In this document: positions 5,036 to 63,856 of the stretch, piece by piece
Layout of the letters: each line of letters opens with the position of its first letter
Numbering within the stretch: position 1 is the first letter of the stretch
Assembly (NCBI RefSeq): GCF_964213995.1
Contig: NC_135810.1
Coordinates: forward strand, 99,634,001-99,698,000
Direction of reading: 5' to 3'
DNA from: Mustelus asterias
Taxonomy: Eukaryota
Length of the DNA stretch: 64,000 nucleotides
Made by a program: the position numbers and the translations under genes
Notes under the pieces: model-generated
What the model saw: the letters and a program-made list of their open reading frames with translations, nothing else
What the model was told of the DNA's origin: nothing
Databases searched by the model: none

Positions 5036-5606
5036 CATAAGACCATAAGACATAGGAGCGGAAGTAAGGCCATTCGGCCCATCGAGTCCACTCCACCATT
5101 CAATCATGGTTGATTTCAACTCCATTTACCCGCTCTCTCCCCATAGCCCTTAATTCCTCGAGAAATCAAGAATTTATCAATTTCTGTCTTGAAGACGCTC
5201 AACGTCTCGGCCTCCACAGCCCTCTGTGGCAATGAATTCCACAGACCTACCACTCTCTGGCTGAAGAAATTTCTCCTCATCTCTGTTCTAAAGTGACTCC
5301 CTTTTATTCTAAGGCTGTGCCCCCGCGTTCTAGTCTCCCCTGCTAATGGAAACAACTTCCCTACGTCCATCCTATCTAAGCCATTCATTATCTTGTAAGT
5401 TTCTATTAGATCTCCCCTCAACCTCCTAAACTCCAATGAATATAATCCCACGATCCTCAGACGTTCATCGTATGTCAGGCCTACCATTCCTGGGATCATC
5501 CGTGTGAATCTCCGCTGGACCCACTCCAGTGCCAGTATGTCCTTCCTGAGGTGTGGGGCCCAAAATTGCTCACAGTACTCCAAATGGGGCCTAACCAGTG
5601 CTTTAC
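5036..5606 (-). mobile_element. CR1 LINE 3' fragment (ORF2 C-terminus and tail)
   Basis: ORF 5116-5583 EYCEQFWAPHLRKDILALEWVQRRFTRMIPG...WNSLP; GTCTTATG-type tail. Confidence 0.95.
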
Positions 5607-5890
5607 ATAGAACAGTACAGCACAGAACAGGCCCTTCAGCCCACGATGTTGTGCCGAGCTTTATCTGAAACCAAGATCAAGCTATCCCACTCCCTATCAT
5701 CCTGGTGTGCTCCATGTGCCTATCCAATAACCGCTTAAATGTTCCTAAAGTGTCTGACTCCACTATCACTGCAGACAGTCCATTCCACACCCCAACCACT
5801 CTCTGCGTAAAGAACCTACCTCTGATATCCTTCCTATATCTCCCACCACGTACCCTATAGTTATGCCCCCTTGTAATAGCTCCATCCACA
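5607..5890 (-). mobile_element. CR1 LINE 3' fragment (second subfamily); its tail continues at 5021-5035
   Basis: ORF 5677-5889 TRGHNYRVRGGRY...FFTQRVVGVWNGL; TTCTATG-type tail. Confidence 0.9.
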
Positions 5891-10428: not shown

Positions 10429-10569
10429 TAATACCTTAAGGGCAACAATTAATGGGCAGTTAATCATGTTTTTACAGTGTCATCTGCATCCCAAATATGT
10501 TTTCTAAAATTATACTGTTAAAGACGTTGGAAATATTAAGACAAAATCTTGAGGACTACCCCTAGTGGA

Positions 10570-10992
10570 CTCTGGGTCTGTACTCATTGGAGTTTAGAAG
10601 GATGAGGGGGGATCTTATTGAAACTTGCAGGATACTGCGAGGCCTGGATAGAGTGGACATGGAGAGGATGTTTCCACTCGTTGGAAAAACGAGAACCAGA
10701 GGGCACAGCCTCAGGCTAAAGGGACGATCCTTTAACACAGAGATGAGGAAGAATTCCTTGAGCCAGAGAGTGGTGAATCTGTGGAACTGTTTGCTGCAGA
10801 AGGCTGTGGAGGCCAGGACATTGAGTGTCTTTAAGACAGAAATAGATAGGTTCTTGATTGATAAGGGGTCAGGGGTTATGGAGAAAAGGCAGGAGAATGG
10901 GATGAGAAAAAAATCAGCCATGATTGAATGGCAGAGCAGACTTGATGGGCCGAGTGGCCTAATTCTGCTCCTATGTCTTATGGTCTTATGGT
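10570..10992 (+). mobile_element. CR1 3' fragment
   Basis: ORF 10587 EFRRMRGDLIETCRILRGLDRVD...RVVNLWN; tail ATGTCTTATGGTCTTATG. Confidence 0.95.
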
Positions 10993-11654
10993 TATTTCTG
11001 ACAAAACCATTCCCACCAGTGTGAAATTGGTTAGGGCTCCAACCACTGAGGACTCACCTCATTTTTGATGTGCAGTACGTATTCGCCAGCCTTTGAGTCT
11101 GGCTGAAAGTGCTTTTACATTCGATGAGAGAGGCGAGGGGGCAGGAGAGGTGGGAAACAAAATCAGATAGACTCTGTAATGGGCAGCCAATTCACAAGTG
11201 CCAGTTTTCCATCTGTGTCCAAAATGAAAATCCTGCCCCCTCAAAACTCCCCCGAAAATTTCCCCTTCGCCCCGCCGGCCTCTGCAATGTGTGTGTTGTT
11301 ATTCCCACAATCAGTGCTACAGATTTTGTATTTGAATTGCTCTGTGTTGTATTTCCCAAACTTCATGCCAAATATTGTCATGGGCTTACCACTCTCACGT
11401 TAATTTGACATGAGCGACAAGATTTTAACCAGGATGGGGATGTTAAAATGACAGCTGGGTGTTACTCACTGCATTCTCACTTAACCCACCACTTTAATTC
11501 CATAGAGTTTTGAAAGCTTCCAGGACACCCACCACAAACAGGAAGTTCCTCATTAACTCAGGCTTATGATGGTATTGCCCAGATTGGAAATGTCCAGGGA
11601 AAGCTAATGAAAAGCTAACAGATTCAAGAAAGGCCTAATTAAGTTATCATTTTA

Positions 11655-12422
11655 GTAGCAACATTCACACCAAACAAATGCCAGGCAATGACCATCACCA
11701 ATAAGAGGCACTCTAACCACCGCCCTCGACATTCAATGGTGTAACCACCACTGAATCCCCCACTGTCAACATCCTTGGGGTTACCATTGATCAGAAACTC
11801 AACTGGACTTGCCACATAAACACAGTGGCTACAAGAACAAGTCAGAGGCTAGGAATACTGTGGCGAGTAAATCATCTCTGACCCCCCAAAGCCTGTCCAC
11901 TATCTGCAAAGCACAAGTCAGGAGTGTGATGGAATACTCCCCACTTGTCTGGATGGGTGCAGCTCCAACAACACTCAATAAGCTCAACACCATCCAGGAC
12001 AAAGTAGCCCGCTTGATTGACACCACATCCACACACATACACTCCCTCCACCACCGACGCTCAGTAGCAGCGGTTTGTACTACATACAAGATGCACCAAA
12101 GACCCTTAGACAGCAACTTATAAACTCATGACCACTTCCATCTAGAAGGACAATGGCAGCAGATACATGGGAACACCACCACCTGCAAGTTCCCCTCCAA
12201 GCCACTCACCAATCTGACTTGGAAATATATCGCCGCCATTCCTTCACAGTCGCTGGGTCAAAATCCTGGAATTCCCTCCCTAACAGCATTGCGGGTCAGC
12301 CCACAGCACGTGGACTGCAGCGATTCAAGAAGGCAGCTCACCACCACCTTCTCAAGGGCAACTAGGGATGGATAATAAATGCTGGTCAGCCAGCGACGCC
12401 CATGTCCCATGAATGAGAAAAA
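11655..12422 (+). mobile_element. LINE-B (CR1/L2 group) 3' fragment
   Basis: PQSLSTICKAQVRSVMEYSPLVWMGAAPTTLNKLNTIQDK and SKSWNSLPNSI; A-rich end. Confidence 0.9.
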
Positions 12423-27854: not shown

Positions 27855-29150
27855 ACATAGAACATAGAACATTATAGCGCAGTACAGGCCCTTCGGCCCT
27901 CGATGTTGCGCCTACCAGTGAAACCAATCTAAAGCCCATCTAACCTACACTATTCCAATATCATTCATATGTTTATCCAATGACCATTTAAATGCCCTTA
28001 ATGTTGGCAAGTCCACTACTGCTGCAGGCACGGCATTCCACGCCCTTACCACTCTCTGAGTGAAGAACCTACCTCTGACATCTGTCCTATATCTATCACC
28101 CCTCAATTTAAAGCTATGTCCCCTCGGGTGAGCTATCACCATCCGAGGAAAAAGGCTCTCACTATGCACCCTATCTAATCCTCTGATCATTTTGTATGCC
28201 TCTATTAAGTCACCTCTTAACCTTCTTCTCTCTAACAAAAACAACCTCAAGTCCCTCAGCCTTTCCTCATAAGACCTTCCCACCATACCAGGCAACATCC
28301 TAGTAAATCTTCTCTGCACCCTTTCCAATACATCCACATCCTTCCTATAATGCGGTGACCAGAACTGTACGCAATACTCCAAGTGCGGCCGCACCAGAGT
28401 TTTGTACAGCTGCAATATGACCTCCTGGCTCCGAAACTCAATCACTCTACCAATAAAAGCTAACATACTGTACGCCTTCTTAACAACCCTATCAACCTGG
28501 GTGCCAACTTTCAGGGATCTATGCACATGGACACCGAGATCTCTGTTCATCCACACTACCAAGTATCTTACCATTCGCCCAGTACTCTGTAATCCTGTTA
28601 CTCCTTCCAAAGTGAATCACCTCACACTTTTCCGCATTGAACTCCATTTGTCACCTCTCAGCCCAGCACTGCAGCTTATCTCTGTCCCTCTGTAACCTGC
28701 AACAACCTTCCGCACTGTCTACAACTCCACCGACTTTAGTGTCATCCGCAAATTTACTAATCCACCCTTCCACGCCCTCATCCAGGTCATTTATAAAAAT
28801 GACAAACAGCAGTGGCCCCAAAACAGATCCTTGCGGTACACCACTAGTAACTGAACTCCAGGATGAACATTTCCCATCAACCACCACCCTCTGTCTTCTT
28901 ACAGCGAGCCAATTCCTGATCCAAACCGCTAAATCACCCTCAATCCCATGCCTCCATATCTTCTGTAATATCTTACCGTGGGGAACCTTATCAAACGCTT
29001 TACTGAAATCCATATACACCACATCAACTGCTTTACCCTTATCCACCTCTTTGGTCACCTTCTCAAAGAACTCAATAAGGTTTGTGAGGCACGACCTACC
29101 CTTCACAAAACCGTGTTGACTATCCCTAATCAAATTATTCCTTTCTAGAG
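27855..29150 (-). mobile_element. CR1 LINE, RT core to 3' end (frameshifted ORF2)
   Basis: [42 protein letters not shown]; C-terminal ORF 27945-28610. Confidence 0.97.
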
Positions 29151-29896
29151 TAGTCACTGAAGGGTTTCTAACTCATGATTGTAGCAGATCTGAATGTTAA
29201 AGATGTAAAAATTGAGTTTTGCTGCTGCACCATCATTTTCAATTAAGAGAAAAAATGTATAATCTCTGTGTTAAATATTAGAAATACTGAGGGTTGGCTT
29301 AATTTTGTCTGTATTGTGCTGGCTCTTCAGTCAATCAAATAAAACCTGCATCAGTCAATCACCTTGATTTCTATCTAACAAGTCACAAATATATTGTCCT
29401 CATTTCTAGCTATAATATCGTAAAACAGACCAAATACATTACAGGAGATGGCTCTCATTAATTTGTAAAACCATTCAGTAGCGATTCAGGATCCACGGCC
29501 CATTGTTCAGGTTCCACACTTGTGATTTAATTGCTCCAACATTAAGCCAGCGTGCAATGCTTCTTTTCTGAACTATGCTCCAGGTCATACTGTTGGACGC
29601 TTTGGCGCCCGACAACAAATGCTCTGGGTATTGAACCCTTTACAATTACTCTTACACAACCAAACTGTGAGCATTTCCGAGTCTCGATGAAAAGATTGCG
29701 TGGACACACATTCAATTTCCTCTCTTCACAGCCCACCAGTTTGTAACGTTGTAACACAGACAAAATAGGGACATTAAAGTACTGACATTTCACCCAAAAT
29801 GAGATCTGACTTTGAATTTTGATTAATGAGAGCCATCTCCTGTAATGTATTTTGATTCTGTTTATTGAAAATTAAATGTTTGAAGCACATGATTGG

Positions 29897-32232: not shown

Positions 32233-34160
32233 TAGAACATAAGAACATAAGAACTAAGAGCAGAAGTCGGCCATCTGGCCCCTCGAGCCTGTCCTGCCAT
32301 TCAATAAGATCATAGCTGATCTTTTCATGGACTCAGACCCACTGACCCACCCGCTCACCATAACCCTTAATTCCTTTACTGTTCAAAAACTTATCTATCC
32401 TTGCCTTAAAAACATTCAATGAGGTAGCCTCAACTGCTTCACTGGGCAGGGAATTCCACAGATTCACAATCCTTTGTGTGAAGAAGTTCCTCCTCAACTC
32501 AGTCCTAAATCTGCTCCTTCTTATTTTGAGGCCATGCCCCCTAGTTCTAGTTTCGCCCACCAGAGGAAACAACCTCTCTGCTTCTATCTTATCTATTCCC
32601 TTAATAATCTTATATGTTTCTATAAGATCTCCCCTCATTCTTCTGAATTCCAATGAGTATAGCCTCAGTCTACTCAGTCTCTCCTCATAAGCCAACCCTC
32701 TCAACTCCAGAATCAACCTAGTGAAGCTCCTCTGCACCCCCTCCAGTGCCAGTATATTGTTTCTCAAGTAAGGAGACCAAAATTGTACACAGTACTCCAG
32801 GTGTGGCCTCACCAGCACTTTATACCGCTGCACCATAACCTCGCTGTTTTTAAACTCCATCCCTTTAGCAATGAAGGACAAAATTCCATTTGCCTTCTTA
32901 ATTGGGCGGCACGGTAGCACAGTGGTTAGCACTGCTGCTTCACAGCTCCAGGGACCTGGGTTCGATTCCCGGCTCGGGTCACTGTCTGTGTGGAGTTTGC
33001 ACATTCTCCTCGTGTCTGCGTGGGTTTCCTCCGGGTGCTCCGGTTTCCTCCCACAGTCCAAAAATGTGTGGGTTAGGTTGATTGGCCATGCTAAAATTGC
33101 CCCTTAGTGTCCTGAGATGTGTAGGTTAGAGGGATTAGTGGGTAAAATATGTAGGGATATGGGGGTAGGGCCTGGGTGGGATTGTGGTCGGTGCAGACTC
33201 GATGGGCCAAATGGCCTCCTTCTGCACTGTAGGGTTTCTATGATTCTATGAATTACCTGCTACACCTGCAAACCAACTTTTTGTGATTCATGCACAAGGA
33301 CACCCAGGTCCCTCTGCACAGCAGCATGCTGCAATTTTTTACCACTTAAATAATTGTCTATTTTGCTGTTATTCGCACCAAAATTAATGACCTCACATTT
33401 ACCAACATTGTACTCCATCTGCCAGATCCTTGCCCACTCATTTAGACTACCTATATCCCTTTGCAGACTTTCAGCGTCCTTTGCACGCTTTGCCCTGCCA
33501 TTCATCTTAGTGTCATCTACAAATTTTGAAACACTACACTTGGTCCCCAACTCCCAATCATCTATATAAATCATAAACAATTGCGGTCCCAACACTGATC
33601 CCTGAGGCACACCACTAGTCACTGATCACCAACCAGAAAAACACCCATTTACCCCCACTCTTTGCTTTCTGTTAGTTAACCAATCCTCTATCCATGATAA
33701 TACATTACCCATAACACCGTGCACCCATATCTTATGCAGCAGCCTTTGGTGCGGCAGCTTGTCAAATGCCTTCTGGAAATCCAGATACTCCACATACACA
33801 GGTTCCCCATTGTCCACTGCGCACGTAATGTTCTCAAAAAATTCCACCAAATTATTCAAATATGAACCCATGCTGCGTCTTCCCAATGGGACAATTTATA
33901 TCCAGATGTCTCGCAATTTCTTCTTTGATGATATAGATTCAAGCATTTTCCCTACTACAGAAGTTAAGCTAACCGGCCTATAGTTACCCGGCTTTTGTCT
34001 ACCTCCTTTTTTAAACAGTGTCATCACATTTGCTGTTTTCCAATCTGCGGGAACCACCCCAGAGTTCAGCGAATTTTGGTAAATTACCACTAGTGCATTT
34101 GCTGTTTCCCCCGCCATCTCTTTTAGTACCCTGGGATGCATTCCATCAGGGCCAGGAGAC
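32233..34160 (-). mobile_element. CR1 LINE, about 1.6 kb of ORF2 (RT to 3' end), interrupted by HE1
   Basis: [60 protein letters not shown]. Confidence 0.97.
32904..33250 (+). mobile_element. HE1 SINE, full-length and young-looking
   Basis: GGGCGGCACGG...TTCTATGATTCTATG; AATT duplicated on both flanks. Confidence 0.95.
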
Positions 34161-35919: not shown

Positions 35920-36420
35920 ACTCCATCAGGTAACACATTCCCCTTCTGTCCCCCCTCCACCTTCTGAAGCCGGCATTCCCTTTGGTTTATCCTTTTCCAC
36001 TCATCAACCAGATTGATTTGCAACTTTTCCTGTCACTCTAACACTTCTTTTTGCAATCATGGCAGTTGAAAATCTATCCATGTACCCATTCGCATACCAT
36101 TATCCAGGGCATCAAATATTACTTCTTCATGGGACAATTTATGTTTAATTCCTCCAACTTAATATCCTATATTCACTGCTCACAGTGTAGTTTCCTCCAC
36201 AATGGAGAATCCAAACACATATTGGATAGTCAATTTACTGAATATATCCTTTCTCTCCGCAACTGTGATCTCTGCCGAGGTGTGGCTTATCATTATGATG
36301 CTACAAGCTCAAACGTAGCCTTTGGAACATTATGTTACATTCCTCCTGTACTGTGTTCTGCCCATTCACTTCAGTGATTGAAACCTTAGCATTATCCCCT
36401 TTCACTCAGATTCAGAATGT
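35920..36420 (+). mobile_element. Old Penelope-like element relic (GIY-YIG region)
   Basis: IQGIKYYF...NLISYIHCSQCSFLHNGESKHILDSQFTEYILSLR aligns with the PLE at 49640-49760. Confidence 0.7.
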
Positions 36421-37033
36421 AAGGGTGTAAGGGTGAGTTTGTCAGCATCCAGGCAGAAGGTAGTTAATAGGTTAATAATGAGTGGGCAACAAGGTTGCAG
36501 GCGTGGGGAAGTGTGAGGTTATTCACTTGAATAGGAAAGCAGAAACTTTTTAAAAAGGCATGAAACTTTTAAATGTTGCTAATCAGAAGGACAAGGCACA
36601 AAAACATTAGCTTGCAGGTAACAGCCAGCAATCAGGAAGGGAAATGCCACATAGGAACTCTTTCTACGACAGTTTTGAGCTTTTGTGGGACCACACAAGG
36701 TCAAATCCTGGATCTCCCTCCCAAACAATATTGTCTGCTGCCCCACATAGGCTGCAGCAGTTCAAGAAAGCAGCTCACCGTTATCTTTCCCAGGGCAATT
36801 ATAGGGGATGGACAATAAATACTGGCCTTGGCAGTAACACTCACAGCCCATGAACAAATAATGGAATACTGCATGCAGTTTTGGTCTCCATATCAGAAGA
36901 AGGATATCCTTGTGCTGGAGGTGATACAGTGTAGCTTCATTATATTCCGAGGATGAAAGGCTTATTGAGAGGATGAATAAATTTGGCCTTTACTCTCTGG
37001 AGTTTTCAAGAATATGAATTGATCTCACACAAT

Positions 37034-37290
37034 GGCCGGAATTTTCCCACCCCACCTGCCAAGGGAATTGCAATGGGCGAGGGGCTGACAACGAGAAGGT
37101 CCATTGACCCCGGGTGGGAGATTGTGGTTTCAGGTCGAGCGAGGCCGTAAGTTCTCACCCTGTGGGTGGGATTTTCTGGCCATGACCGACCCAAGACCAG
37201 AAAATCCTGCCCGAGATCAACAGACCTTTGCACGGTCAGCCCCTTGCCCGTTCCAATTCCCTTGGCAGGCGGGATGGGAAAATTCCGCCC
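37034..37290. mobile_element. Inverted dimer of MITE family A (37034-37160 and 37164-37290)
   Basis: Two 127-bp units in opposite orientation separated by TGT. Confidence 0.85.
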
Positions 37291-37370
37291 AAGATCCTGA
37301 AAGGGCTTGACAGAGTCGACACTGGGAGGTTGGGGAATCTAGAATATAGGGCCAATCATTTAGAACTGAT

Positions 37371-41608: not shown

Positions 41609-42052
41609 ACATAGAAACATAGAAACTAGAAGCAGGAGTAGGCCATTTGGCCCTTCGAGCCTGCTCCGCCATTCATTCTGATCATGGCTGTTCATCAAAT
41701 TAAATATCCTGAACCTCCCCTTCCCCCCTTATCCCTTAATCCCCAAGAGCTATATCTAATTTTTTTCTTGAAATCAGACAACATTTTGGCCTCAACTACA
41801 TTCTGTGGGAGTGAATTCCACACATTCACCACCCTCTGGGTGAAGAAATTTCTCCTCACCTCAGTTCTAGAAGGTTTACCCCTTGTCTTCAAACTATGTT
41901 CTCTGGTTCTGGACTCCCCCACCATCAGGAACGTTCTTTCTGAATCTACCATGTCTAATCCTATTAGAATTTTATAAGTTTCTATGAGATCCCTTCTCAC
42001 TCTTCTAAACTCCAATGAACATAATTCTAACCAACTTAGTCTCACCTCATAT
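41609..42052 (-). mobile_element. CR1 3' fragment
   Basis: ORF 41695-42045; TTTCTATG-type tail. Confidence 0.95.
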
Positions 42053-42261
42053 GGCAGTTTTCAATTACAGTTTGATCTCTCACAGTGATGGGAAAGAGGC
42101 ATCATAATAACAGCAGGAGCACCAAGGAAGATAAAGGTGGAGCATATACTCTGATTCAATTTAATTAAAAGGTAACGAAGCCTTTGAATCTTGTCTCATT
42201 TCATTTGCAGATCAAACAACCTCTGTTGGTCTCAAAGATGAGTCATCTCCGGATCGCAACG

Positions 42262-42465
42262 ACAGCGACTTTCATTTTTATAGCGACTTTAGTGTAGGCG
42301 GTTCACAGGAGGGTTATCAGACAAAGTTTGACACCAAGCTGTACAAGGAGGTATTAGGACAAATGACTAAAAACTTAGTCAGACAGGTAAGGAAAGCCTT
42401 AAAGGGAGGAGAAAGTGGTAGAGAGGTGGATATAGTTCAAGAGAGTTAATTCCTCCAACTTGCTA
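42262..42465 (-). mobile_element. L2-type LINE 3' end relic
   Basis: TTTTATAGCGAC, TTTGACACCAAGC and AAAGGGAGGAGA pattern typical of reversed L2 tails. Confidence 0.55.
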
Positions 42466-42659
42466 TTAGGCAAAAGAAAGTTAGCTTCCATTTTTAACTG
42501 TAGATATTTCAAAACTACTTAACGTAGTAAGAGAGGACTGTTCCCTATTTCAAGCAAGTTGAAATCTCTGCTTTCACAAACTAAAGGAGACTATTGATGT
42601 TATATATTTAAGTGGCTACACGATTGCTTTAAGAGCCGATCACATGATCTGATAGTGAT

Positions 42660-42869
42660 GTCATTGGGTGTTTTGCAACTTGCTGCCAGCCTTTCCAGCA
42701 GGAATATGTTCCTGCCCACTGATTTTTTCCGTGATTTACGATACTGCACTCTGCAGTGCACAGAGTGTGGGAAATTCTTTTCTGAACTCCCACTGAAAAA
42801 AAATAGCGTGAATTACTCCAGTTTTCACGCGAATTCAACACTTAGAAATTTTGGGGGAGAATCGGCCCC
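42660..42869. mobile_element. Harbinger-like non-autonomous element, one end
   Basis: Ends GGGAGAATCGGCCCC, resembling the family D TIR; related to 63857-64000. Confidence 0.6.
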
Positions 42870-43203
42870 TGTGTCTTTTTCTTTTTGTTTAAAACCCACA
42901 ACCAATAATATAGTCAGGTCATTAGAATCGATAAGCTCAGAGTGAACTTCAGTTCTCTGAACATTGCAGCCAAATACATTGTGGAAAGGATGGCAACAGG
43001 TGCTGAGTGGATGTCATGTTGACACAAAGTGCCTGTTCTCAGGTCTGGATTAAGCCTACAGTCTTGGGGTTATTTGCTGATTATCAGAGGTGCATTAAAA
43101 CAGCGATCTGCAGGTTCAGAACTGAAGGACCGATTAGTAGCAATTTTCCTAAAGCAGTATTTATGGCAACCAAGCATACACTTCCAGTAAAGATCTACAG
43201 CGC

Positions 43204-44760
43204 ATGGAAGGAGCAGGAGAACAGCACTTGAAAGAGTAGTTTAGTAAAAGTGTTGTCAGAGATCCTGGTGGTGGAGGTACAGAATGGTTGTCCTGTACCC
43301 AACAGGATGGAAGAGGGTCATAGAGGCACCAAATATGGCGTATGTGAGAGGAGATCACCAAGGAAGTCACAACCAGGAGCACTGGCCTCTCAGACATGTT
43401 TGTAGTGCTGTCAAAAAATAAATGATTTTACGCATGGTCAAGGTAAGATTCTATCTCACAGACACAATATCTCAATACCTGCACCACCACTATCACAATC
43501 TCAAAACACTGCATCCATCATCTAATTACACACTGACATTACCCCAATCCACATGATTCCATCCCGCACAGGCACCGCTCACACATTAGACACAACTCCC
43601 AGCTCATCAATCATATGAGGCATCATAAACACACCTGGCAGTTCACTGATTCACAACCAACACACGTTCTTTTCTTGAACATGACAGGAACTGCCCAGAG
43701 GAATCGAAGCAGGGCTACATGACATCATTCCCGTACAGGAGTCAGCGATTGGGAGTGGTGGATGCCGTGGCCACAAACAGGGCAGGCCACGTATTGACTC
43801 GGGATGTGTGATCATTCCAGCTTCCTTACATGTTATTCCTGATCACCAACCTCTGAACTTATCCCAATTCCCAAGCTTTTAATATTCTCATCGCACACCC
43901 TCCCCGAGTGGCCACCGACACTGTGCCGGAACCCTTCCCAAATCCTTTCATTTAGGATTCCTGACAGCAAGATTCATTTTGCTTCATTGAGTTCTCCTGC
44001 AACATCTTTGACAAGTGTCAGACCCCACTCGGAGTACTGTGCTCAGTTCTGGTCACCTCACTATAGGAAGGATGTGGAAAAGATTGAAAGGATGCAGAGG
44101 AGATTTACAAGGATGTTGCCTGGATTGAGTGGCACGCCTTATGAGGATAGGCTGAGGGAGCTTGGTCTTTTCTCCTTGGAGAGACGAAGGATGAGAGGAG
44201 ACCTAATAGAGGTGTATAAGATGTTGGGAGGCATAGATCAGGTGGACTCTCAGAGACTTTTTCCCAGGGTGGAAATGTCTGCTATGAGAGGACACAGGTT
44301 TAAGGTGCTGGGGAGTAGGTACAGGGGAGATGTTAGGGGTAAGTTTTTCACACAGAGGGTGGTGGGCGAGTGGAATTGGCTGCCGTCAGTGGTGGTGGAG
44401 GCGAACTCAATAGAGTCTTTTAAGAGATTCCTGGATGAGTACATGGAGCTTAATAGGATGGAGGGTTACAGGTAGGTCTAGAAGGTAGGGACGTGTTCGG
44501 CACTACTTGTGGGCCGAAGGGCCTGTTTGTGCTGTAGTTTTTCTATGTTTTCTATGTTCTATCTCACCTCCACACTCACAGGATAACTGGAAGAGAAACA
44601 AAGAACTTTGATTCCCTGGAGGAAGAGGGAGGAGGACACAAGTGAAGAAGAAGGCATTGTGTCAATCACTACCACTGTCGTGGGCAGTAGCATGGAGGTT
44701 GGTGCTGCCCCCCCCCGCCCCCGCCAGAATTTATCAGCTAGAGTAGAACGGGGAACATCA
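43204..44760 (+). pseudogene. Decayed multi-exon Harbinger Myb/SANT-like ORF, interrupted by CR1
   Basis: EILVVEVQ / VLYP / *EEITKEVTTRS / *CCQKINDFT..VK followed by a GTAAG donor at 43443; acidic EDTSEEEG segment at about 44630; several stops and frameshifts. Confidence 0.55.
44017..44562 (+). mobile_element. CR1 3' fragment
   Basis: VRPHSEYCAQFWSPHYRKDVEKIERMQRRFTRMLPG; TTTCTATG tail. Confidence 0.95.
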
Positions 44761-48392: not shown

Positions 48393-50369
48393 ACCACACC
48401 CAAAAACTCATAAAGCAAATAAGCTTTTCTTACTAGCATGTTATAATATTCAAAAATCTGTTCAAATGGTGAACTCTAAAAATCACATTTAAAGTTTCTT
48501 TTGTAGACATGCAATATTTAGTGAATTCTGGTTTATGATTATTTTACCTAATATTCTAACCTGGGAGGATTCTGATGGGTTCCGTTTCATATGGAAGGTA
48601 TTACCTTAATCTGTCATCGAAGAGTCAGTTTCCTTATCAGCAAACTCAGTTTCAATATTTTGTTCCCCAGCCCTTCCATCATCTGATACTGATTCAAAAA
48701 TAATCCACCAATGATCCTGATGTATCTCTTAAATGCAGCAAAATGCCCCAAGACAATTCTTAAAGCAAAGAATAAAAGGAATCTTTTCTTACATAATAAT
48801 AAAAGAAACTTTTCTTCCTCCAAGTAAAAGGTGCGGCTCTGAGCACCTGCATGGGTCCCAGTTATGCCAGTTTTTTTATGGGTTATGTGGAGCATTCTCT
48901 GTTTCCAGTCCTACTCCGGCCCCCTCCCTCAACTCCTTTATATCGACGACTATTTCGGTGCCACTTCATGCTCTCGTCTAGACTAGAAAAAATGATCTAT
49001 TCTGCTTTTAATTTACACCCCTCTATCACCTTCATATGGTCCATCTCTGACACTTCTCTTCCCTTCCTTGACCGTCTCCATTTCTGATGATAAACTGCCC
49101 ATTAGTATCATTACAAGTCCACCGTCTCCCACAACTATCTTGACTACAGCTCTTCACACCCCACATCCTGTAAGGACTCCATCCCATTCTCCCAGTTCCT
49201 TCGCCTCCACCACACCCATTCAGATGATGCCACTTCCCAACATAGCGCTGCCGATAGGTCTTCTTTTTTCCTCAGCCGTAGTTTTCCACCCACTGACAGG
49301 GCTCTCAACTGTGTCCAACCCATCTCCCGGACCTCTGCTCTCACCTCCTCCCTTCCCTCACCGAACCAGGATAGGGTCCCCTTTGTCCTCACTTTTCACC
49401 TCACCAGCCTCTACATTCAAAGGATCATCCTCCGCCTTTTCGCCAACTCCAGCATGATGCCACTACTCAACACATCTTCCCCTCACCTCCCCCCCCCTCT
49501 CAGCATTCCACAGGGACCGTTCTCACCAGGACACCCTGGTCCACTCCTCCATCACACCCAACACCTCACCCCCTGCTCCCGGCATCTTCCCATGCAATCA
49601 TAGAGGATGCGACATCTCTCCTTTTACCTCCTCCCTGCTCACCATCTCAGGTCCTAAACACTCCTTTCAGCGTAGTCTACTCTACATCGGAAAGACCGAA
49701 CGCAGACTGGGTGACCACTTTGCTGAACACCGTCAGTCTGTCCACAAGCAGGACCCAGACCTTCCAGTCGCTTGCCACTTCAACACAGCACCCTGCTCTC
49801 CTGACCACATGTCCGCATCCTTGGCATTTTGCAATGTTCTAGCGAACCCCAACGCAAACTGGAGAATAGCACCTCATCTTACAATTGGGCACTTTACAGC
49901 CTTCTGAACTGAACATTGAGTTCTACAACTTCAGAGCATGAACTCTCCCCTCCACCTTCACCCCATTCCCATTTATTTCATTTCATCTCTTTCATCCATT
50001 TTATCATCCTTCTTTTTCACTTCTATTTTTCCACTTCTCCATTCCAGCTCTCCTTCTTTCCACACCCCCACCCCCACTTCCCCCACCATCTCCCCACCGC
50101 CTCCCCCCTCCCCCCCAGCCCCCCCTCCCTCCCCCCCCCCCCTCCCCCCCCCAACCCCTCCCCTTCAGGGCAACTGCCACATTCCTCAGGCAGTCCTTTA
50201 ACAATCTGTACCTCTGTTCTGCCATTCTCACATTCTGGTCACTTTATTAATGGACACTCTTAGCACCTTCTCAGCCTTCTGTATCCTCATTTCCATTCCC
50301 TTTGTCCCATTCCACACCCCTCTCCCCCAACCCCAATAGTATAAATCTCTGCTGATTCTCTTTGCTCTT

Positions 50370-50408
50370 AGCTCTGATGAAGGGTCATCTAGGCTCGAAA
50401 CGTTGGCT
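50370..50408 (+). ncRNA. Minimal type I hammerhead ribozyme motif of the PLE pseudo-LTR
   Basis: AGCT-CTGATGA-A-GGGTC-ATCTA-GGCTC-GAAA-CGTT-GGCT: conserved core, pairable stems I and II, palindromic AACGTT stem III. Confidence 0.8.
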
Positions 50409-50419
50409 CTATTCTCTCC

Positions 50420-50583
50420 GGTAGTCATGATGTGGAGATGCCGGCGTTGGACTGGGGTAAACACAGTAAGAAGTTTAACAACACCAGGTTAAAGTCCAAC
50501 AGGTTTATTTGGTAGCAAAAGCCACACTTTTGCTACCAAATAAACCTGTTGGACTTTAACCTGGTGTTGTTAAACTTCTTACT
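50420..50583. mobile_element. Fold-back mini-element 1 (inverted PLE pLTR)
   Basis: Perfect 57-bp arms at 50465-50521 and 50527-50583; TSD CTCTATTCTCTCC. Confidence 0.85.
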
Positions 50584-50924
50584 CTATTCTCTCCCCACAG
50601 GTGCTGTCAGACCTGCTGAGATTTTCCAGCATTTTCTGTTTTTGTTTCAGATTCCAGCATCCGCAGTATTTTGTTTTTATAATGAAAGAAACCTATCAAG
50701 AGTGCAAAGAGTTGGCGCTATAACAAAAGGTGTAGCGATTCATCTGAGCCTGTGTTTGTAGTGAGAGATCGCTGTTTTAAGGCTGAGAGATTTAAGACCG
50801 CTTGTTCCATTATGTTTCTCTATTTTTCGCTATAGGTAACAAAATGGCACATTGTTGGTTTTATGACAATTTCTGTTTACACATTTTTACCCACAATATC
50901 TGTGTCTCCATAGTACTAAAATAT

Positions 50925-53147: not shown

Positions 53148-53193
53148 ATGTTGATTTGATTTGATTTATTATTGACACATGTATTAATATACA
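53148..53193 (-). mobile_element. Rex1/Babar extreme 3' tail
   Basis: (TTTGA)n TTTATTATTGACACATGTATT matches the reverse complement of 59950-59990. Confidence 0.7.
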
Positions 53194-53319
53194 TCAAAAT
53201 ATAAAGTTTAAGTTTATTTGAAAACAACTCAACACGACCAGGACCAAGCCAACTTAAAGTTGCAGAGACCATTCACGTACAAGCTGGCATGAATTCAACA
53301 GCCTGCTGCCAATATTGAA

Positions 53320-53496
53320 GATGTGGAGATGCCGGCGTTGGACTGGGGTAAACACAGTAAGAAGTTTAACAACACCAGGTTAAAGTCCAACAGGTTTATT
53401 TGGTAGCAAAAGCCACACAAGCCCTTAAAGCTTGTGTGGCTTTTGCTACCAAATAAACCTGTTGGACTTTAACCTGGTGTTGTTAAACTTCTTACT
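53320..53496. mobile_element. Fold-back mini-element 2
   Basis: Perfect 67-bp arms at 53356-53422 and 53430-53496; TSD CTGCCAATATTGAA. Confidence 0.88.
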
Positions 53497-53926
53497 GCCA
53501 ATATTGAACACAGCTCTCGCAGGAAGCTATTTATTTTTAACAACCTCTGGTTGGGGTTGAAAATAGGCTTGTTTACGGTATTGAGTGGAATACTGTAAGC
53601 CAGTGTTAGAGATCCGGGAATTTTAAATTTAAAGTCATTTGCTCCCAGGAGACATATTCATATTTTTGGTGAACTTTTATACAGGCTAAAGATTTAATTC
53701 ACTCAAATTAGGTTCCACCCACAAAAACTGACCATGTTCCGATTGAAACATAGAAACATCGAAACTAGAAGCAGGAGTAGGCCATTCAGCCCTTCGAGCG
53801 TACTCTACCATTCATTTTGACCATGCCTGATCATTGAATTCAATATCCTGATCCCCCCTTCCCCCCATGTCCCTTGATCTCTTTAGCCCTTAGAGCTATA
53901 TCTAATTTCTTCTTGAAATCAGACAA

Positions 53927-55212
53927 CGAAGAGAGGTTCCGGAGGATTGGAGGAGTGAGGATGTGGTTCCTATATTCAAGAAAGGGAATAGGGATAGCCC
54001 AGGAAATTACCGACCGGTGAGTCTAACCTCAGTGGTTGGTAAGTTGATGGAGAAGATCCTGAGGGACAGGATTTATGAACATTTAGAGAAGTTTAGTATG
54101 CTCAAACGTAGTCAGCACGGCTTTGTCAAAGGCAAATCGTGCCTTACGAGCCTGGTGGAGTTCTTTGAAAATGTGACTAAACACGTTGACGAAGGAAAAG
54201 CGGTAGATGTGGTTTACATAGACTTCAGCAAGGCGTTCGATAAGGTCCCCCATGCAAGACTTCTCGAGAAAGTGAGAGGGCATGGGATCCAAGGGCTGTT
54301 GCCTTGTGGATCCAGAACTGGCTTGCCTGCAGAGGGCAGAGAGTGGTTGTAGATGGGTCTTTTTCTGAATGGAGGTCGGTCACCAGTGGAGTGCCCCAGG
54401 GATCTGTTCTGTGACCCTTGCTGTTTGTCATTTTCATAAATGACCTGGATGAGGAAGTGGAAGGATGGGTTGGTAAGTTTGCCGACGACACGAAGGTTGG
54501 TGGTGTTGTGGATAGTTTGGAGGGATGTCAGAAGCTGCAGCGTGACATAGATAGGATGCAAGACTGGGTGGAGAAGTGGCAGATGGGCTTCAACCCAGAT
54601 AAATGTGTAGTGGTCCATTTTGGCAGGTCAAATGGGATGAAGGAGTATAATATCAAGGGTAAGACTCTTAGCAGTGTAGAGGATCAGAAGGACCTTGGGG
54701 TCTGGGTCCAAAGGACTCTTAAATCAGCCTCGCAGGTAGAGGAGGTGGTTAAGAAGGCGTATGATGTGCTGGTCTTCATCAATCGAGGGATTGAGTTTCG
54801 GAGTCGGGAGATAATAATGCAGCTTTATAAGACTCTCGTCAGACCCCACTTAGAGTACTGTGCTCAGTTCTGGTCGCCTCATTACAGGAAGGGTGTAGAA
54901 ATTACACCCTTTTCCCTTTTCCCCCTCTCTCTCTCTTTCCCCTCTCTCTCTCTTCCCCCGCCCTCTCTCTCTTTTCTTTCTCCCCTCTCTCTCTACCCTT
55001 TCCCCCCTCTCTCTCTCTCTCTTCCTGGAATGCACTGCCAAGCAAGGTGATTGAGGCGGACACGCTGGGATCATTTAAGACTTATCTAGATAACCACATG
55101 AACAGACTGGGAATAGAGGGATACAAAAGAATGGTCTAGTGGGCACATGAGCGGCGCAGGCTTGGAAGGCCGAAGGGCCTGTTCCTGTGCTGTATTGTTC
55201 TTTGTTCTTTGA
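53927..55212 (+). mobile_element. CR1 LINE, RT to 3' end, nested
   Basis: [39 protein letters not shown]; GTTCTTT tail. Confidence 0.97.
54905..55023 (+). repeat. CT-rich (polypyrimidine) low-complexity tract
   Basis: About 120 nt almost entirely C/T with (CT)n runs. Confidence 0.9.
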
Positions 55213-57426: not shown

Positions 57427-57930
57427 ATGGTGTCATTTCCCTACGTCAAATAAATGTACTTACCAATGGGTTCTGGGAACTAAGTTTCATTAAATAATAC
57501 TTAATTAATGTTACTTGATTAGTCACAAAGTAAGATAGTTATGGTTGTCAATCATCTCAGTCCAGGGACATCACTGCAGGGGTTTCTCAGGGTAATGTCC
57601 AAGGCTCACCAGTGTCCTGCCCATCAGACAGTCAGAAGTGGAGATGTTCACTGATGATTGCACAATGTTCATGGCTCCTCCGACACTGAAGCAATCCATG
57701 TCTATATGCAGCAAGACCCAGACAATATCCAAGCTTGGGCTGACAACTGGCAAGTATCATTCACAACACACAGGTGCCAGGCAATGACCATCTCCAACAA
57801 GAGAGAATCTAACCATCTCCCCCTGACATTAAATCACATTACCATTGCTGAATTCCCCACATCCTTAAGATTACCAATGACCAGAAAATGAACTGGACAA
57901 GCCATCTAAATACTGTGGCTACAACAGCAG

Positions 57931-58016
57931 AGTAAGAGTTTTAACAACACCGGGTTAAAGTGTTGTTAAAACTCTTACTGTGTTTACCCCAGTCCAATGC
58001 CGGCATCTCCACATCA
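57931..58016. mobile_element. Fold-back mini-element 3 (opposite orientation)
   Basis: 20-bp arms at 57931-57950 and 57960-57979; TSD TGGCTACAACAGCAG. Confidence 0.85.
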
Positions 58017-58282
58017 TGGCTACAACAGCAGGTCAGAGACTGAGAATTCTGTGGATAGTAACTCAACTCCTGACTCCCCAAAGCCTGTTCACCATCTATA
58101 AGGCAGAAGTCTGGAGAGTAATTGAATACTCTCCACTTGCCTGGATGAGTGCAACTCCAACAACACTCAAGAAGCTCAACACCATCCAAGACAAAGCAAC
58201 TCACTTCATTGGCACCCCATCCATCAACTTAAGCATTCACCCCCTGTACCACCAATGCACAGTGGCAACAGTGTGCACCATA

Positions 58283-58608
58283 GGGCAGCACGGTGGCACA
58301 GTGGCTAGCACTGCTGCCTCACAGTGCCAGCGACCTGGGTTCGATTCCCAGCTTGGGTCACTGTCTGTGTGGAATTTGCATTCTCCCAGTGTCTGCATGG
58401 GTTTCATCCAGATGCTCCGGTTTCCTCCTGCAGTCCAAAGATGTGCGGGTTAGGCGGATTGGCCATTCTAAATCGCCCCTTAGTGTCAGGGGGATGAGCC
58501 AGGGTAAATGCATAGGGTTATGGGTGTAGGTGGGATTGCGGTCAATGCAGACTCGATGGGCTGAATGGCCGCCTTCTGCACTGTATGATTCTATGATACT
58601 CTATGATT
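58283..58608 (+). mobile_element. HE1 SINE
   Basis: Full-length; ATTCTATGA tail. Confidence 0.92.
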
Positions 58609-58815
58609 TACAAGATGCACTGTAGCAACTCAACAAGGCTCCTTTGACAGCACCTTCCAAACCCGTGACCTCTACCACTTAGAAGGACAAGGGCAGCAGA
58701 TACCTGGGGACAACAGCATCTGGAAGTTCCACTCCAAGCCACATATCATTCTGACTTGGAACTATATTGCCATTCGTCCGCTGTCACTGGGCCAAGATCC
58801 TGGAACTCCCTTCCT

Positions 58816-59997
58816 GTCAGAACTCCCGGACTACCTGGATCCATTACAGTTTGCCTACTGCTGCAACAGGTCCACAGCAGACGCCATTTCCCTGGCCCTG
58901 CACTCAACCCTGGAACACCTAGATAACAAGGACACCTATGTCAGACTCCTATTTATTGACTACAGCTCAGCCTTCAACACTATTATTCCCACGAAATTCA
59001 TCTCCAAACTCTGTGACCTGAGCCTCGGCACCTCCCTATGTGACTGGATCCTGAACTTCCTAACTCACAGACCACAATCAGTAAGGTCACAACACCTCCT
59101 CCACAATCATCCTCAACGCTGGTGCCCCACAAGTCTGTGTTCTCAGCCCCCTGCTGTATTCCTTATACACCTATGACTGTGTGGCCAAATTCCCCTCCAA
59201 TTCGATTTTCAAGTTTGCTGACGACATCACCGTAGTGGGTCAGATCTCAAACAATGACGAGACAAAGTACAGGAATGAGATAGAGAACCTGGTGAACTGG
59301 TGCGGCAACAATAATCTCTCCCTCAATGGGAAGAAGTAGAAAGGGTCGAGAGCTTCAAGTTCTTAGGTGTCCAGATCACCAACAACCTGTCCTGGTGCCC
59401 CCATGCCAACACTATAGTTAAGAAAGCCCACCAACGCCTCTACTTTCTCAGAAGACTAAGGAAATTTGGCATGTCAGCTACGACTCTCACCAACTTTTAC
59501 AGATGCACCATAGAAAGCATTCTTTCTGGTTGTATCACAGCTTGGTATGTCTCCTGCTCTGCCCAAGACCGCAAGGAACTACAACAAGTCGTGAATGTAG
59601 CCTAATCCATCACGCAAACCAGCCTCCCATCCACTGACTCTGTCGATAGCTCCCGCTGCTTCGCAAAGCAGCCAGCATAATTAAGGACCCCATGCACCCC
59701 AGACATTCTCTCTTCCACTTTCTTCCTTCGGGGAAAAGATACAAAAGTCTGAGGCCATGTACCAACCGACTCAAGAACAGCTTCTTCCCTGCTGCTGTCA
59801 GACTTTAAATGGACCTACCTTGCATTAAGTTGATTATTCTCTACACCCTAGCTATGACTTTAACACTACATTCTGCACTCTCTCATTTCCTTCTCTATGA
59901 TTGGTATGCTTTGTCTGTATAGCGCTCAAGAAACAATACTTTTCAGTGTATACTAATACATGTCACAATAATAAATCAAATCAAAAATCAAAAAATC
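58816..59997 (+). mobile_element. Rex1/Babar-clade LINE, 5'-truncated
   Basis: [21 protein letters not shown]...[51 protein letters not shown]; (AATCA)n tail. Confidence 0.92.
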
Positions 59998-61479: not shown

Positions 61480-62925
61480 ACATGTGGCAATGAAGTGGGC
61501 TGCTTTGTTCTGGATGGTGTTGACTGTTTTTTAGATCCACAATCATCGAGGCAAGTGAAGAGTATTCAATCACACTCCTGACTTGCACCCTGTAGTTTGT
61601 GGACAGGCTTTGGGGAGTCAAGTGATGAGTTACTCGCTGCAGCATTTGCAGCCTCTGACCTGTTCATACAGCCATAGCATTTATATGGCAAGTTCAAATG
61701 CAAGTATCAATGCGAAGTGATGCATTTTGGTAGAACTAACGTAGGGGGGAGCTATACGATAAATGGCAGAACCATAAAGGGTGTAGATACGCAGAGGGAC
61801 CTGAGTGTGCAAGTCCACAGATCCTTGAAGGTGACGTCACAGGTGGAGAAGGTAGTGAATAAGGCATATGACATGCTTGCCTTTATAGGACGGGGCATAG
61901 AGTATAAAAGTTGGGGTCTGATGTTGCAGATGTATAGAACGTTGGTTCGGCCACATTTGGAGTACTGCGTCCAGTTCTGATCGCCACACTACCAGAAGGA
62001 CGTGGAGGCTTTAGAGAGAGTGCAGAGGAGGTTTACCAGGATGTTGCCTGGTATGGAAGGGCTTAGTTATGAGGAGAGATTGGGTAAACTGGGGTTGTTC
62101 TCACTGGAAAGACGGAGGATGAGGGGTGACCTAATAGAGGTGTACAAAATTATGAAAGGTATAGATAGGGTGAACGGTGGGAAGCTTTTTCCCAGGTCGG
62201 TGGTGATGTTCACGAGGGGTCATAGATTCAAGGTGATGGGGGGGGGAGGTTTAACACGGATATCAAAAGGACGTATTTTACACAGAGGGTGGTGGGGGCC
62301 TGGAATGCGCTGCCGGGCAAGGTAGTGGAGGCAGACACACTGGGAATGTTTAAGACTTACCTAGAAAGCCACATGAATGGAGTGGGAATGGAGGGATGTA
62401 AAAGAATGGTCTAGTTTGGACCAGGGAGCGGCGCGGGCTTGGAGGGCCGAAGGGCCTGTTCCTGGGCTGTATTGTTCTTTGTTCTTTGTTCAGTTTTGTT
62501 GCTGGTAATTGGTAACCCCCAGGATTTTAATGGCAGGGGAATCAGCAATTACATTGACATTGAATTTCAATGAGAGATGGCTTGATTCTCTCTTGTTGGA
62601 GGTGTTCATTGTCTGGCACTTGAGTGGTGTGGATGTTATGTGTCACTTATCAACCCAAGCCTGAATTTTATCAAGACCATGCTGCATTTTGGAATGGACT
62701 GTTTGATGATCTGAAGAGTTACATATGGAACTGAACACTGTGCAATCATCAGTGAACATTCCCATTTCTGACCTTATGATGGAGGGCAGGTTATTAATAA
62801 AGCAGCCAAAGATAGTTGGGTGCAGTACACGACCATAAGGAATGCCTGCAATGATGTTTTGGGACTGAGGTGATTGCTCTCTAACAATCACAGCCATCTT
62901 CCTTTCCTGGTATATATGTCTCCAG
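61480..62925 (-). mobile_element. LINE-B fragment split by CR1
   Basis: PQSLSTNYRVQVRSVIEYS (61412-61645 ORF) and FINNLPSIIRSEMGMFTDD (62643-63179 ORF). Confidence 0.85.
61708..62492 (+). mobile_element. CR1 3' fragment, nested
   Basis: ORFs 61717 and 62002 (LEYCVQF, ERVQRRFTRMLPG); GTTCTTT tail. Confidence 0.95.
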
Positions 62926-63856
62926 TCAGTGGAAAGTTTTTCTCTAATTCTTATTGACTTGCAGGCAATGGACCAAAGTTTGTTTTCAATCAGTCCACAG
63001 AATTGCTGGCAAGTTGCAGAAGTGACCAATATCAGACACCACGACACAACCCACCATCGAGCAATGTCGAACAATGTAACAGGGTGATAATGGACAGTCT
63101 GAGAGCTATATGTCAGAGTGGGAAATGATTGAACAATCCATTCATTTTCCAACTTCACACATCTTAATCCATCCCACACTCTGAAAGAGGAAGTTGCGGA
63201 TGCTTCCGCATGCTGAGCTTTGATGGGGAACAGTATAGTTTGCCATTGCCTTTACAATGTACCTGGTAGCTTGGAAGCAACCTTGTGTCTCTGCTTACAC
63301 TACGTGTGCTTGTCTTCTATAACAAAGAGAGGAACATGCTTCAATCCTAGCCAGAGAATGATAGAGGAGGCGTCCAACAAAACATCTCAACATTACCCAG
63401 CAACACAATATTGTCTAACATGTATGTGGACATGTGAAACCAGGTTTGTCTTTTATTATTATCAAAATGATCAATACACTTCTGAGAGATGAATACCTGA
63501 TTGAGTTTAATGTGCCACACTCTGTCGGGCAAAAAAGTACTTCCTAAAACCAATTGTGGCATGTCTAATAGTGATTCTTGTTGCGGTTTTATTTGTAAGC
63601 ATTTTTTAAAGCAAATAATAATTTGATAGAAGCCTTTTTTCAGGAAACTGATGAGGATTCCTGTCAATTCATTTTACCATGGGTACCCCAGCTAAGCAAC
63701 AATAAAAGGCAAATGTAAAGCCCCAGTAGCTGTAGCTATATATCAGTTTTCTTTTTCTTTTTTCCTTTTCCCCATGTTTCCAATTCCAATTCTCTTCCCA
63801 CACCTAGCGATGCACTAAGTGATCAGAATGGGTGAAATTTTATGAGATTGATTCTA

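Follow-up and report, generated by a model that had tools for sequence, protein, structure and literature searches.

Fold-back insertions in the window

Three insertions of a single design lie in the window, by which we mean the whole 64-kb stretch of DNA that was analysed. Each consists of a perfect inverted repeat around a short loop, a single-copy tail on one arm only, and flanking direct repeats; recomputed coordinates bear out the initial annotation, which had described the arms, loops, tails and repeats from the letters. Copy 1 is a 164-bp insert (50420-50583) whose hairpin (50465-50583) has perfect 57-bp arms at 50465-50521 and 50527-50583 and a loop of 5 nt. Its tail of 45 nt (50420-50464, minus strand) extends 9 nt beyond the tail end of copy 2 and takes in an ATG, and its direct repeats are 13 bp long (50407-50419 and 50582-50594, plus strand), or 11 bp if 2 nt are microhomology. 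Copy 2, the largest, is a 177-bp insert at 53320-53496 with arms at 53355-53422 and 53430-53497 and a loop of 7 nt. The arms are 68 bp long, or 67 bp without the outermost pair, which falls inside the direct repeat; counted in this second way, the tail-bearing arm is 53356-53422 (minus strand) and the tail-less arm 53430-53496 (plus strand), the latter terminating at CTTACT. The 36-nt tail (53320-53355, minus strand) forms the 3' end in the sense of the element RNA, and the 14-bp direct repeats at 53306-53319 and 53495-53508 (plus strand) would be 11-12 bp if the 2-3 bases in common with the element end are element-derived. Copy 3 (57931-58016, 86 bp) is oriented opposite to copies 1 and 2. 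Its hairpin (57931-57979) comprises 20-bp arms at 57931-57950 and 57960-57979 and a 9-nt loop, and is followed by a tail of 37 nt (57980-58016, plus strand), or up to 44 nt counting the bases common to the repeat. The direct repeats of copy 3 are 15 bp (57916-57930 and 58017-58031, plus strand; 8 bp if the first 7 nt are microhomology between element and target), and the left one is within a LINE reading frame.

Copies 1 and 2 are identical over 99/99 nt, and copy 3 has 94.6% identity over 56 nt (blastn). No further family copies were found by blastn in the 64-kb window, so that the design is present in 3/3 copies. When the six arms are aligned, the outer ends are common and the inner ends vary, the tail-less end being defined by these three copies; it is compatible with CTTACT in each of them, give or take 2-3 nt of microhomology for copies 1 and 2. 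Subfamily bases are shared by both arms within each copy, two of them in copy 3. Copies 1 and 3 have an ATG after the tail. The hexamer AATAAA occurs on both strands of copies 1 and 2, as first annotated, and is absent from copy 3; its double occurrence is that of a single hexamer of the pseudo-LTR (pLTR), mirrored by the inverted repeat.

Perfect hairpins of at least 14 bp with a loop of at most 20 nt number three in the window, all of this family, compared with 1, 0, 0, 0 and 0 in five Markov simulations, and an 11-nt direct repeat arose at random boundaries (±3) in 7 of 200,000 trials. The three hairpins have folding z-scores of -23.7, -26.0 and -6.1, and the tail with one arm alone has no stable fold (z -0.53). 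A comparison of the window with Rfam gave nothing at gathering level; the miRNA matches on copy 1 are sub-threshold hairpin matches, far below the gathering scores (36 versus 100 bits at best). Two other inverted repeats were noted in the window. One, at 37033-37291, is an imperfect 128-nt repeat with a 3-nt spacer and 75% complementarity, unrelated to the hairpin family by blastn; the other, at 29432-29852, consists of 31-nt perfect inverted repeats 359 nt apart and is a possible MITE.

Copy 1 is located inside a decayed Penelope-like element (PLE) of another family (48815-50400, plus strand). This host retains RT and GIY-YIG pieces at 48815-49923, among them the RT thumb, followed by a long pyrimidine-rich 3' region and a pLTR with its own minimal hammerhead core at 50374-50400; copy 1 begins 7 nt after that core, an apparent PLE-in-PLE insertion into the host pLTR. 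The host frames at 48815-49923 match long RT proteins, 34/120 of which carry PF01541 (GIY-YIG), and the two nearest proteins are from rays, which would agree with a cartilaginous-fish genome. Pfam labelled 0/3 of the host frames and gave the two nearest proteins a weak RVT_1 only; the identity of the host is taken from the protein matches above. Comparisons of the host frames support the view that the hairpins represent a second family of PLEs, separate from the RT/GIY-YIG element that hosts copy 1. An older, isolated GIY-YIG-like PLE fragment is present at 36054-36344 (plus strand; best E 1e-6 against PLE proteins), with no adjoining pLTR of either family detected. The window also contains a SINE-like repeat in more than 15 copies and LINE reverse-transcriptase fragments at 5116-5676, 10566-11024, 27945-29172, 32333-33983, 41695-44475, 53906-55050, 57700-59176 and 62480-63251, for two of which RVT_1 was confirmed by Pfam.

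Empty sites and target-site duplication

Public contigs from 4/23 listed sequencing runs (X1, X3, X4 and X13, from three organisms designated A, B and C) were aligned to 53180-53640. In X13 (organism C), a contig of 266 nt joins 53180-53305 directly to 53495-53608; the site of copy 2 is empty there and the 14-bp repeat is present once. Because the empty site of a relative has the repeat once, the direct repeat of copy 2 is a true target-site duplication (TSD). In X1 (organism A), the run that matches the window best (0.71 of words), a contig of 387 nt carries 53206-53305 at record positions 55-157, and a depth of 15.4 resumes over 53516-53548; contig coverage and depth tables together indicate that the copy 2 site is probably empty in this run as well. 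Between the left flank of the X1 contig and the window there are 10 letter differences and 3 gaps, and the contig therefore comes from another haplotype or species. The empty-site reading draws on X13 and X1, the flank contig of X4 stopping before the site and X3 being without flank coverage. Copy 3 interrupts a LINE, and a paralogous LINE near 11,826 has the duplicated stretch once. Retro-insertion with a true TSD, as originally proposed, is thus supported by the empty orthologous site for copy 2 and by the single repeat in the paralogous LINE for copy 3.

The element ends share short microhomology with their targets: 2 nt in copy 1 and 3 nt in copy 2, both at the tail-less end, and 6/7 nt at the tail end of copy 3, so that the true staggers may be 8-12 bp once this is discounted. 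The AT content of the three target sites is 47-64%, and no ATT consensus is apparent. Beside the tail-less arm each target ends in AG (50582-50583, 53495-53497 and 57929-57930), matching or repeating the first two bases of the cDNA; this suggests possible primer-template pairing of 2-3 nt at the tail-less start site. In the left flank of copy 2 (53229-53258), five to six window-specific changes are clustered 50-90 nt from the insertion, at positions where the runs of the three organisms agree mutually.

The family across sequencing runs

The numbers of contigs on 53180-53640 in the four runs from three organisms were 52,495, 17,330, 34,418 and 58,786, nearly all on the element; these are not copy numbers, and the family is very abundant in the three organisms. 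Loose ends at 53320, the tail end, occur in 4/4 runs. There, 499, 130, 259 and 1552 contigs continue into long flanks with an agreement of 0.37-0.39, and the flank consensus has only about 7 common letters beside the tail. Since the long flanks are unrelated to one another, the tail end is an insertion boundary. Arm-to-arm joints were likewise present in 4/4 runs, with 577 direct joints from left arm to right arm and another 595 that include filler letters, spread over many positions. Across the genome, fold-back copies differ in arm length, and the arms (57, 67-68 and 20 bp in the window, with hundreds of differing joints) are variable as first annotated, not fixed TIRs.

Depth over the loop-proximal bin of copy 2 was 408,343 and 148,228 in organism A versus 229 and 251 in B and C, and this contrast points to a lineage-restricted and young subfamily. 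The bases of copy 3 at the equivalents of 53363 and 53364 make up about 13-15% of X1 depth; they are common variants, not decay. Recent activity of the family, another part of the original description, is supported. A further set of loose ends, at 53353 (177 and 44 contigs), was weighed as a possible tail-less boundary and set aside, because it looks in part like a tail variant. Searches for longer copies by exact pattern gave 0 and then 2 loci in metagenome contigs, 2 in prokaryote genomes and 0 in viral contigs; the four loci match over 19-25 nt only and are taken as chance.

Hammerhead sequence beyond the arm

The loose ends that pass the inner end of the arm spell a minimal type I hammerhead in 4/4 runs, as read by eye from the consensus letters. 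Its parts are a CTGA(T/C)GA core, a 5-bp stem II, GAAA, a 2-bp palindromic stem III and a 3-bp stem I. An extension of the form CTGA-N-GA...GAAA had been predicted, and its presence directly beyond the arm in all four runs supports PLE affinity, minimal hammerheads being typical of PLE pLTRs (PMC6155905). The tail-bearing arm would then be the pLTR segment directly downstream of the hammerhead. Copy 2 retains a putative remnant at 53427-53436 (plus strand) with the GAAA end, stem III and the 3' strand of stem I, and from the known hammerhead core the ribozyme cut is predicted between 53433 and 53434, which lies 63 nt inside CTTACT in this subfamily. No hammerhead was picked up by Rfam in the window, because the window copies hold only the last 10 nt of the motif.

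In copy 1 the long arm ends at the counterpart of 53434, the base that immediately follows the predicted cut; this may be a single coincidence and is a lead only. The arms of copy 2 run 4 and 7 nt past the predicted cut, and copy 3 stops far short of it. The loop of copy 2 (53423-53429) consists of a 4-nt filler and the AAA of the hammerhead GAAA, which continues the tail-less arm; X1 has a loose end at 53427. The filler (53423-53426) is similar to the far side of the stem II read in that loose end, though one base short, as if reverse transcription had skipped the stem between two short repeats.

Probable affinity to Penelope-like elements

The hairpins are very probably end fragments of PLEs. 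Membership in the EN+ PLEs would follow from five DNA-level features that are present: fixed 3' ends with variable 5' truncation, a head-to-head inverted truncated copy (3/3), a one-sided tail (36, 37-44 and 45 nt), a TSD and the hammerhead motif. The architecture itself is already known. In PMC3846280 the typical Penelope structure is given as an inverted pLTR lying adjacent, a tail of 31 bp on one side and a TSD of 9-10 bp, and in PMC8557442 an inverted 5'-truncated copy with a tail of 30-40 bp is given as common to PLEs; the hairpins are the smallest form of this published pattern of inverted truncated pLTR, tail and TSD. The design seen by the initial annotation is real, and its novelty was overstated. 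Much the same applies to an siRNA-type role for the hairpins, which is not new as an idea: Penelope inverted repeats are reported to yield siRNAs in Drosophila (PMC3681739). No description of this hairpin family or of a two-ended joining model was found in the literature outside Repbase, Dfam and some older PLE papers.

Canonical EN+ PLEs, such as Drosophila Penelope and Pen2a_Av of Adineta (PMC3846280; PMC8557442), have in common with the hairpins the head-to-head inverted truncated copy, the one-sided extension of 30-40 nt, the short TSD and a minimal type I hammerhead adjoining the retained segment. The hairpins differ in consisting of the two truncated ends alone (86-177 bp), with no ORF body between them, and in an abundance far above that of the canonical elements; an autonomous partner was not seen. 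Their TSDs (11-15 bp) are also longer than the 8-10 bp given for rotifer PLEs.

The closest biochemical comparison is with PAc, the Poseidon element of Anolis carolinensis (PMC11167929). In vitro this element nicks and extends both strands, and two internal RNA start sites bound the tail; the protein is predicted to be dimeric and works mostly with uncut RNA. As in the hairpins, its two end points are about one tail apart and lie roughly 60-110 nt downstream of the hammerhead cut, both target strands can be primed, and the extension of copy 2 past the predicted cut is as expected of an uncut template RNA. However, the PAc ORF starts inside the hammerhead and includes the tail, whereas the hairpin frames from the remnant meet stops before the tail, and PAc prefers ATT targets. 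The Chlamys PLEs of Chlamydomonas (PMC9977147) resemble the hairpins in extreme 5' truncation, their de novo insertions being very short (median 128 bp), but they use microsatellite targets and belong to an N-terminal EN clade without canonical hammerheads; fold-back pairs are not described in the parts of that paper drawn on here.

Searches at the protein level gave no link between the hairpin family and an RT/GIY-YIG gene. The peptide read from the frame of the tail and ATG returned 0/4 candidates, and a protein search with it returned 0 matches at E<=0.001, the frame of only 23 residues being a weak query. Among 120 full-length PLE proteins screened for the same peptide, 3/120 had a motif of 3-4 residues, none in context. 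With so short a frame these negative results are weak evidence.

Formation of the hairpins

All three hairpins were inserted with target-site duplication and belong to a single high-copy repeat family. We consider it fairly probable that they are extremely 5'-truncated products of an endonuclease-bearing PLE, made by two-ended priming and head-to-head joining of cDNAs. Insertion was into an empty site, with 11-15 bp duplicated, and the inserted DNA is the stretch bounded on one side by the minimal hammerhead core and on the other by two fixed end points separated by 36-45 nt; both steps can be read directly from the sequence. By analogy with the anole PLE in vitro, a dimeric RT/GIY-YIG protein would nick both strands with a stagger, and reverse transcription would start at two internal RNA sites to give one arm with a tail and one without. 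Both cDNAs would then end, with 20-70 nt in common, at a near-equal RNA position, probably because a single template RNA was copied. Lastly, judging from the junctions, the cDNA 3' ends would be joined through 0-2 nt of microhomology or a short filler, and gap filling would produce the perfect hairpin. A related outcome is known from LINE-1 twin priming, in which both target strands prime cDNA and the two products are joined by microhomology within the TSD. There, however, the two cDNAs represent separate, non-overlapping stretches of the RNA and terminate in poly(A), whereas in the hairpins both would copy the same part, giving a perfect hairpin, and poly(A) is absent.

The main alternative involves the same PLE family and a single tail-primed cDNA that snaps back and copies itself, after which EN resolves the second arm at CTTACT and leaves a one-sided tail. 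This scenario accounts for the short loops, the coupled arm lengths and the identical variants in both arms without added assumptions, and both of its components have been put forward before, self-priming in the Discussion of PMC3846280 and EN resolution as the source of the tail in PMC8557442. The arm ends of copies 1-3 differ by 6, 3 and 11 nt, and the 22 distinct joints taken from the best-supported of more than 1,100 have a median arm difference of 4.5 nt and a Spearman correlation of 0.57 (p 0.006). The mean difference among these joints is 6.4 nt, versus 16.0 for independent uniform arms and 9.6 in a pooled permutation (p 0.009). The sample comprised the best-supported 15 of 577 and 12 of 595 rows, with arms of about 20-67 nt, and was reduced from 27 to 22 by dropping three duplicates, a single backward jump and a joint whose filler measures 38 nt and whose arms measure 7 versus 32 nt. 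This last joint goes against coupling; given the whole selection, the p-value is optimistic. Coupling of arm lengths is thus suggestive, and together with the subfamily bases in both arms it suits a snap-back, or equally two polymerases on one RNA.

The two scenarios differ in the origin of the loop. A cDNA that begins with the tail must draw its loop from the tail-bearing arm; with two-ended priming, the loop can be an extension of either one. Copy 1 fits a snap-back, since its loop continues the tail-bearing arm (with a 1-nt overlap, one base being common to both arms), but the 9-nt loop of copy 3 continues the tail-less arm, with microhomology of 2 nt where the arms meet. In copy 2 a filler of 4 nt lies at the joint, and the tail-less arm exceeds the other by 3 nt. 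Loops drawn from different arms in copies 1 and 3 are therefore not obtainable from one snap-back cDNA, and the loop of copy 3 and the longer tail-less arm of copy 2 favour two-ended priming. Later in vitro work also ties the tail to two RT start sites (PMC11167929). On balance we regard the snap-back as rather unlikely, and two-ended priming with joining of two cDNAs as just the better supposition from the junction letters; two-ended priming on a shared template is the version towards which we lean modestly. The original suggestion of two-ended priming and joining of two cDNAs is plausible and fits copy 3 better than a snap-back, with nicking and extension of both strands and two start sites in vitro in its favour (PMC11167929); that study describes the later steps after priming as unvalidated for PLEs. 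The same work found no difference in start site between the two strands. Equal start sites would by themselves leave unexplained a tail that is one-sided in 3/3 copies, an outcome with a chance of about 1 in 8.

A different source RNA was also considered, namely a non-autonomous hammerhead-bearing derivative, retrozyme-like or SINE-like, that is mobilised in trans by a PLE protein, in which case an ORF-bearing member may not exist. The very high abundance of the family and the missing ORF link in the peptide searches and the 120-protein screen would suit such a derivative, and animal non-LTR retrozymes, which are short, non-coding relatives of PLE pLTRs with a type I hammerhead, are described as non-autonomous pLTR derivatives that occur also in a chondrichthyan (bioRxiv 10.64898/2026.07.22.740005). 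Those retrozymes, however, are tandem units with a whole ribozyme, whereas the hairpins are paired in inverted orientation and reach only to the ribozyme or slightly into it, and 0/3 copies in the 64-kb window are tandem or contain a whole ribozyme. Each copy has instead its own junction and arm length, as for one-off truncation products, and an ATG follows the tail in two of them. We judge this source improbable, and it would alter the source RNA while leaving the mechanism of insertion unchanged. Finally, a MITE or fold-back DNA transposon with variable internal deletions would match the short perfect inverted repeats between direct repeats, but is very improbable given asymmetric ends (beyond the inverted repeat a tail of 36-45 nt extends on one side only), no symmetric terminal inverted repeats, direct repeats of no fixed length (13, 14 and 15 bp), arms whose inner ends vary across hundreds of joints, and a sequence that runs into a hammerhead.

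Implications

The copies have no coding capacity and, by prediction, can no longer transpose. A bolder and doubtful extension of two-ended priming is that mini-hairpins may be the dominant in vivo footprint of PLE integration, with a dimeric RT-endonuclease priming both target ends on one RNA, at sites separated by one tail length, the polymerases stopping together and ribozyme self-cleavage capping cDNA length, as the end of copy 1 at the predicted cut might suggest. If this is true, tens of thousands of junctions per genome would be a countable read-out of the unsolved second-strand step of PLEs, and the genome would hold a very large pool of perfect dsRNA hairpins. Minimal inverted copies of this kind would readily be mistaken in annotation for MITEs or miRNA precursors; they can serve as presence/absence markers. 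The origin of the inverted pLTR and its tail has been debated in terms of self-priming, EN resolution and two start sites. A young family with many minimal insertions, in each of which the TSD, the end points and the junction are readable, would allow these models to be tested by counting.
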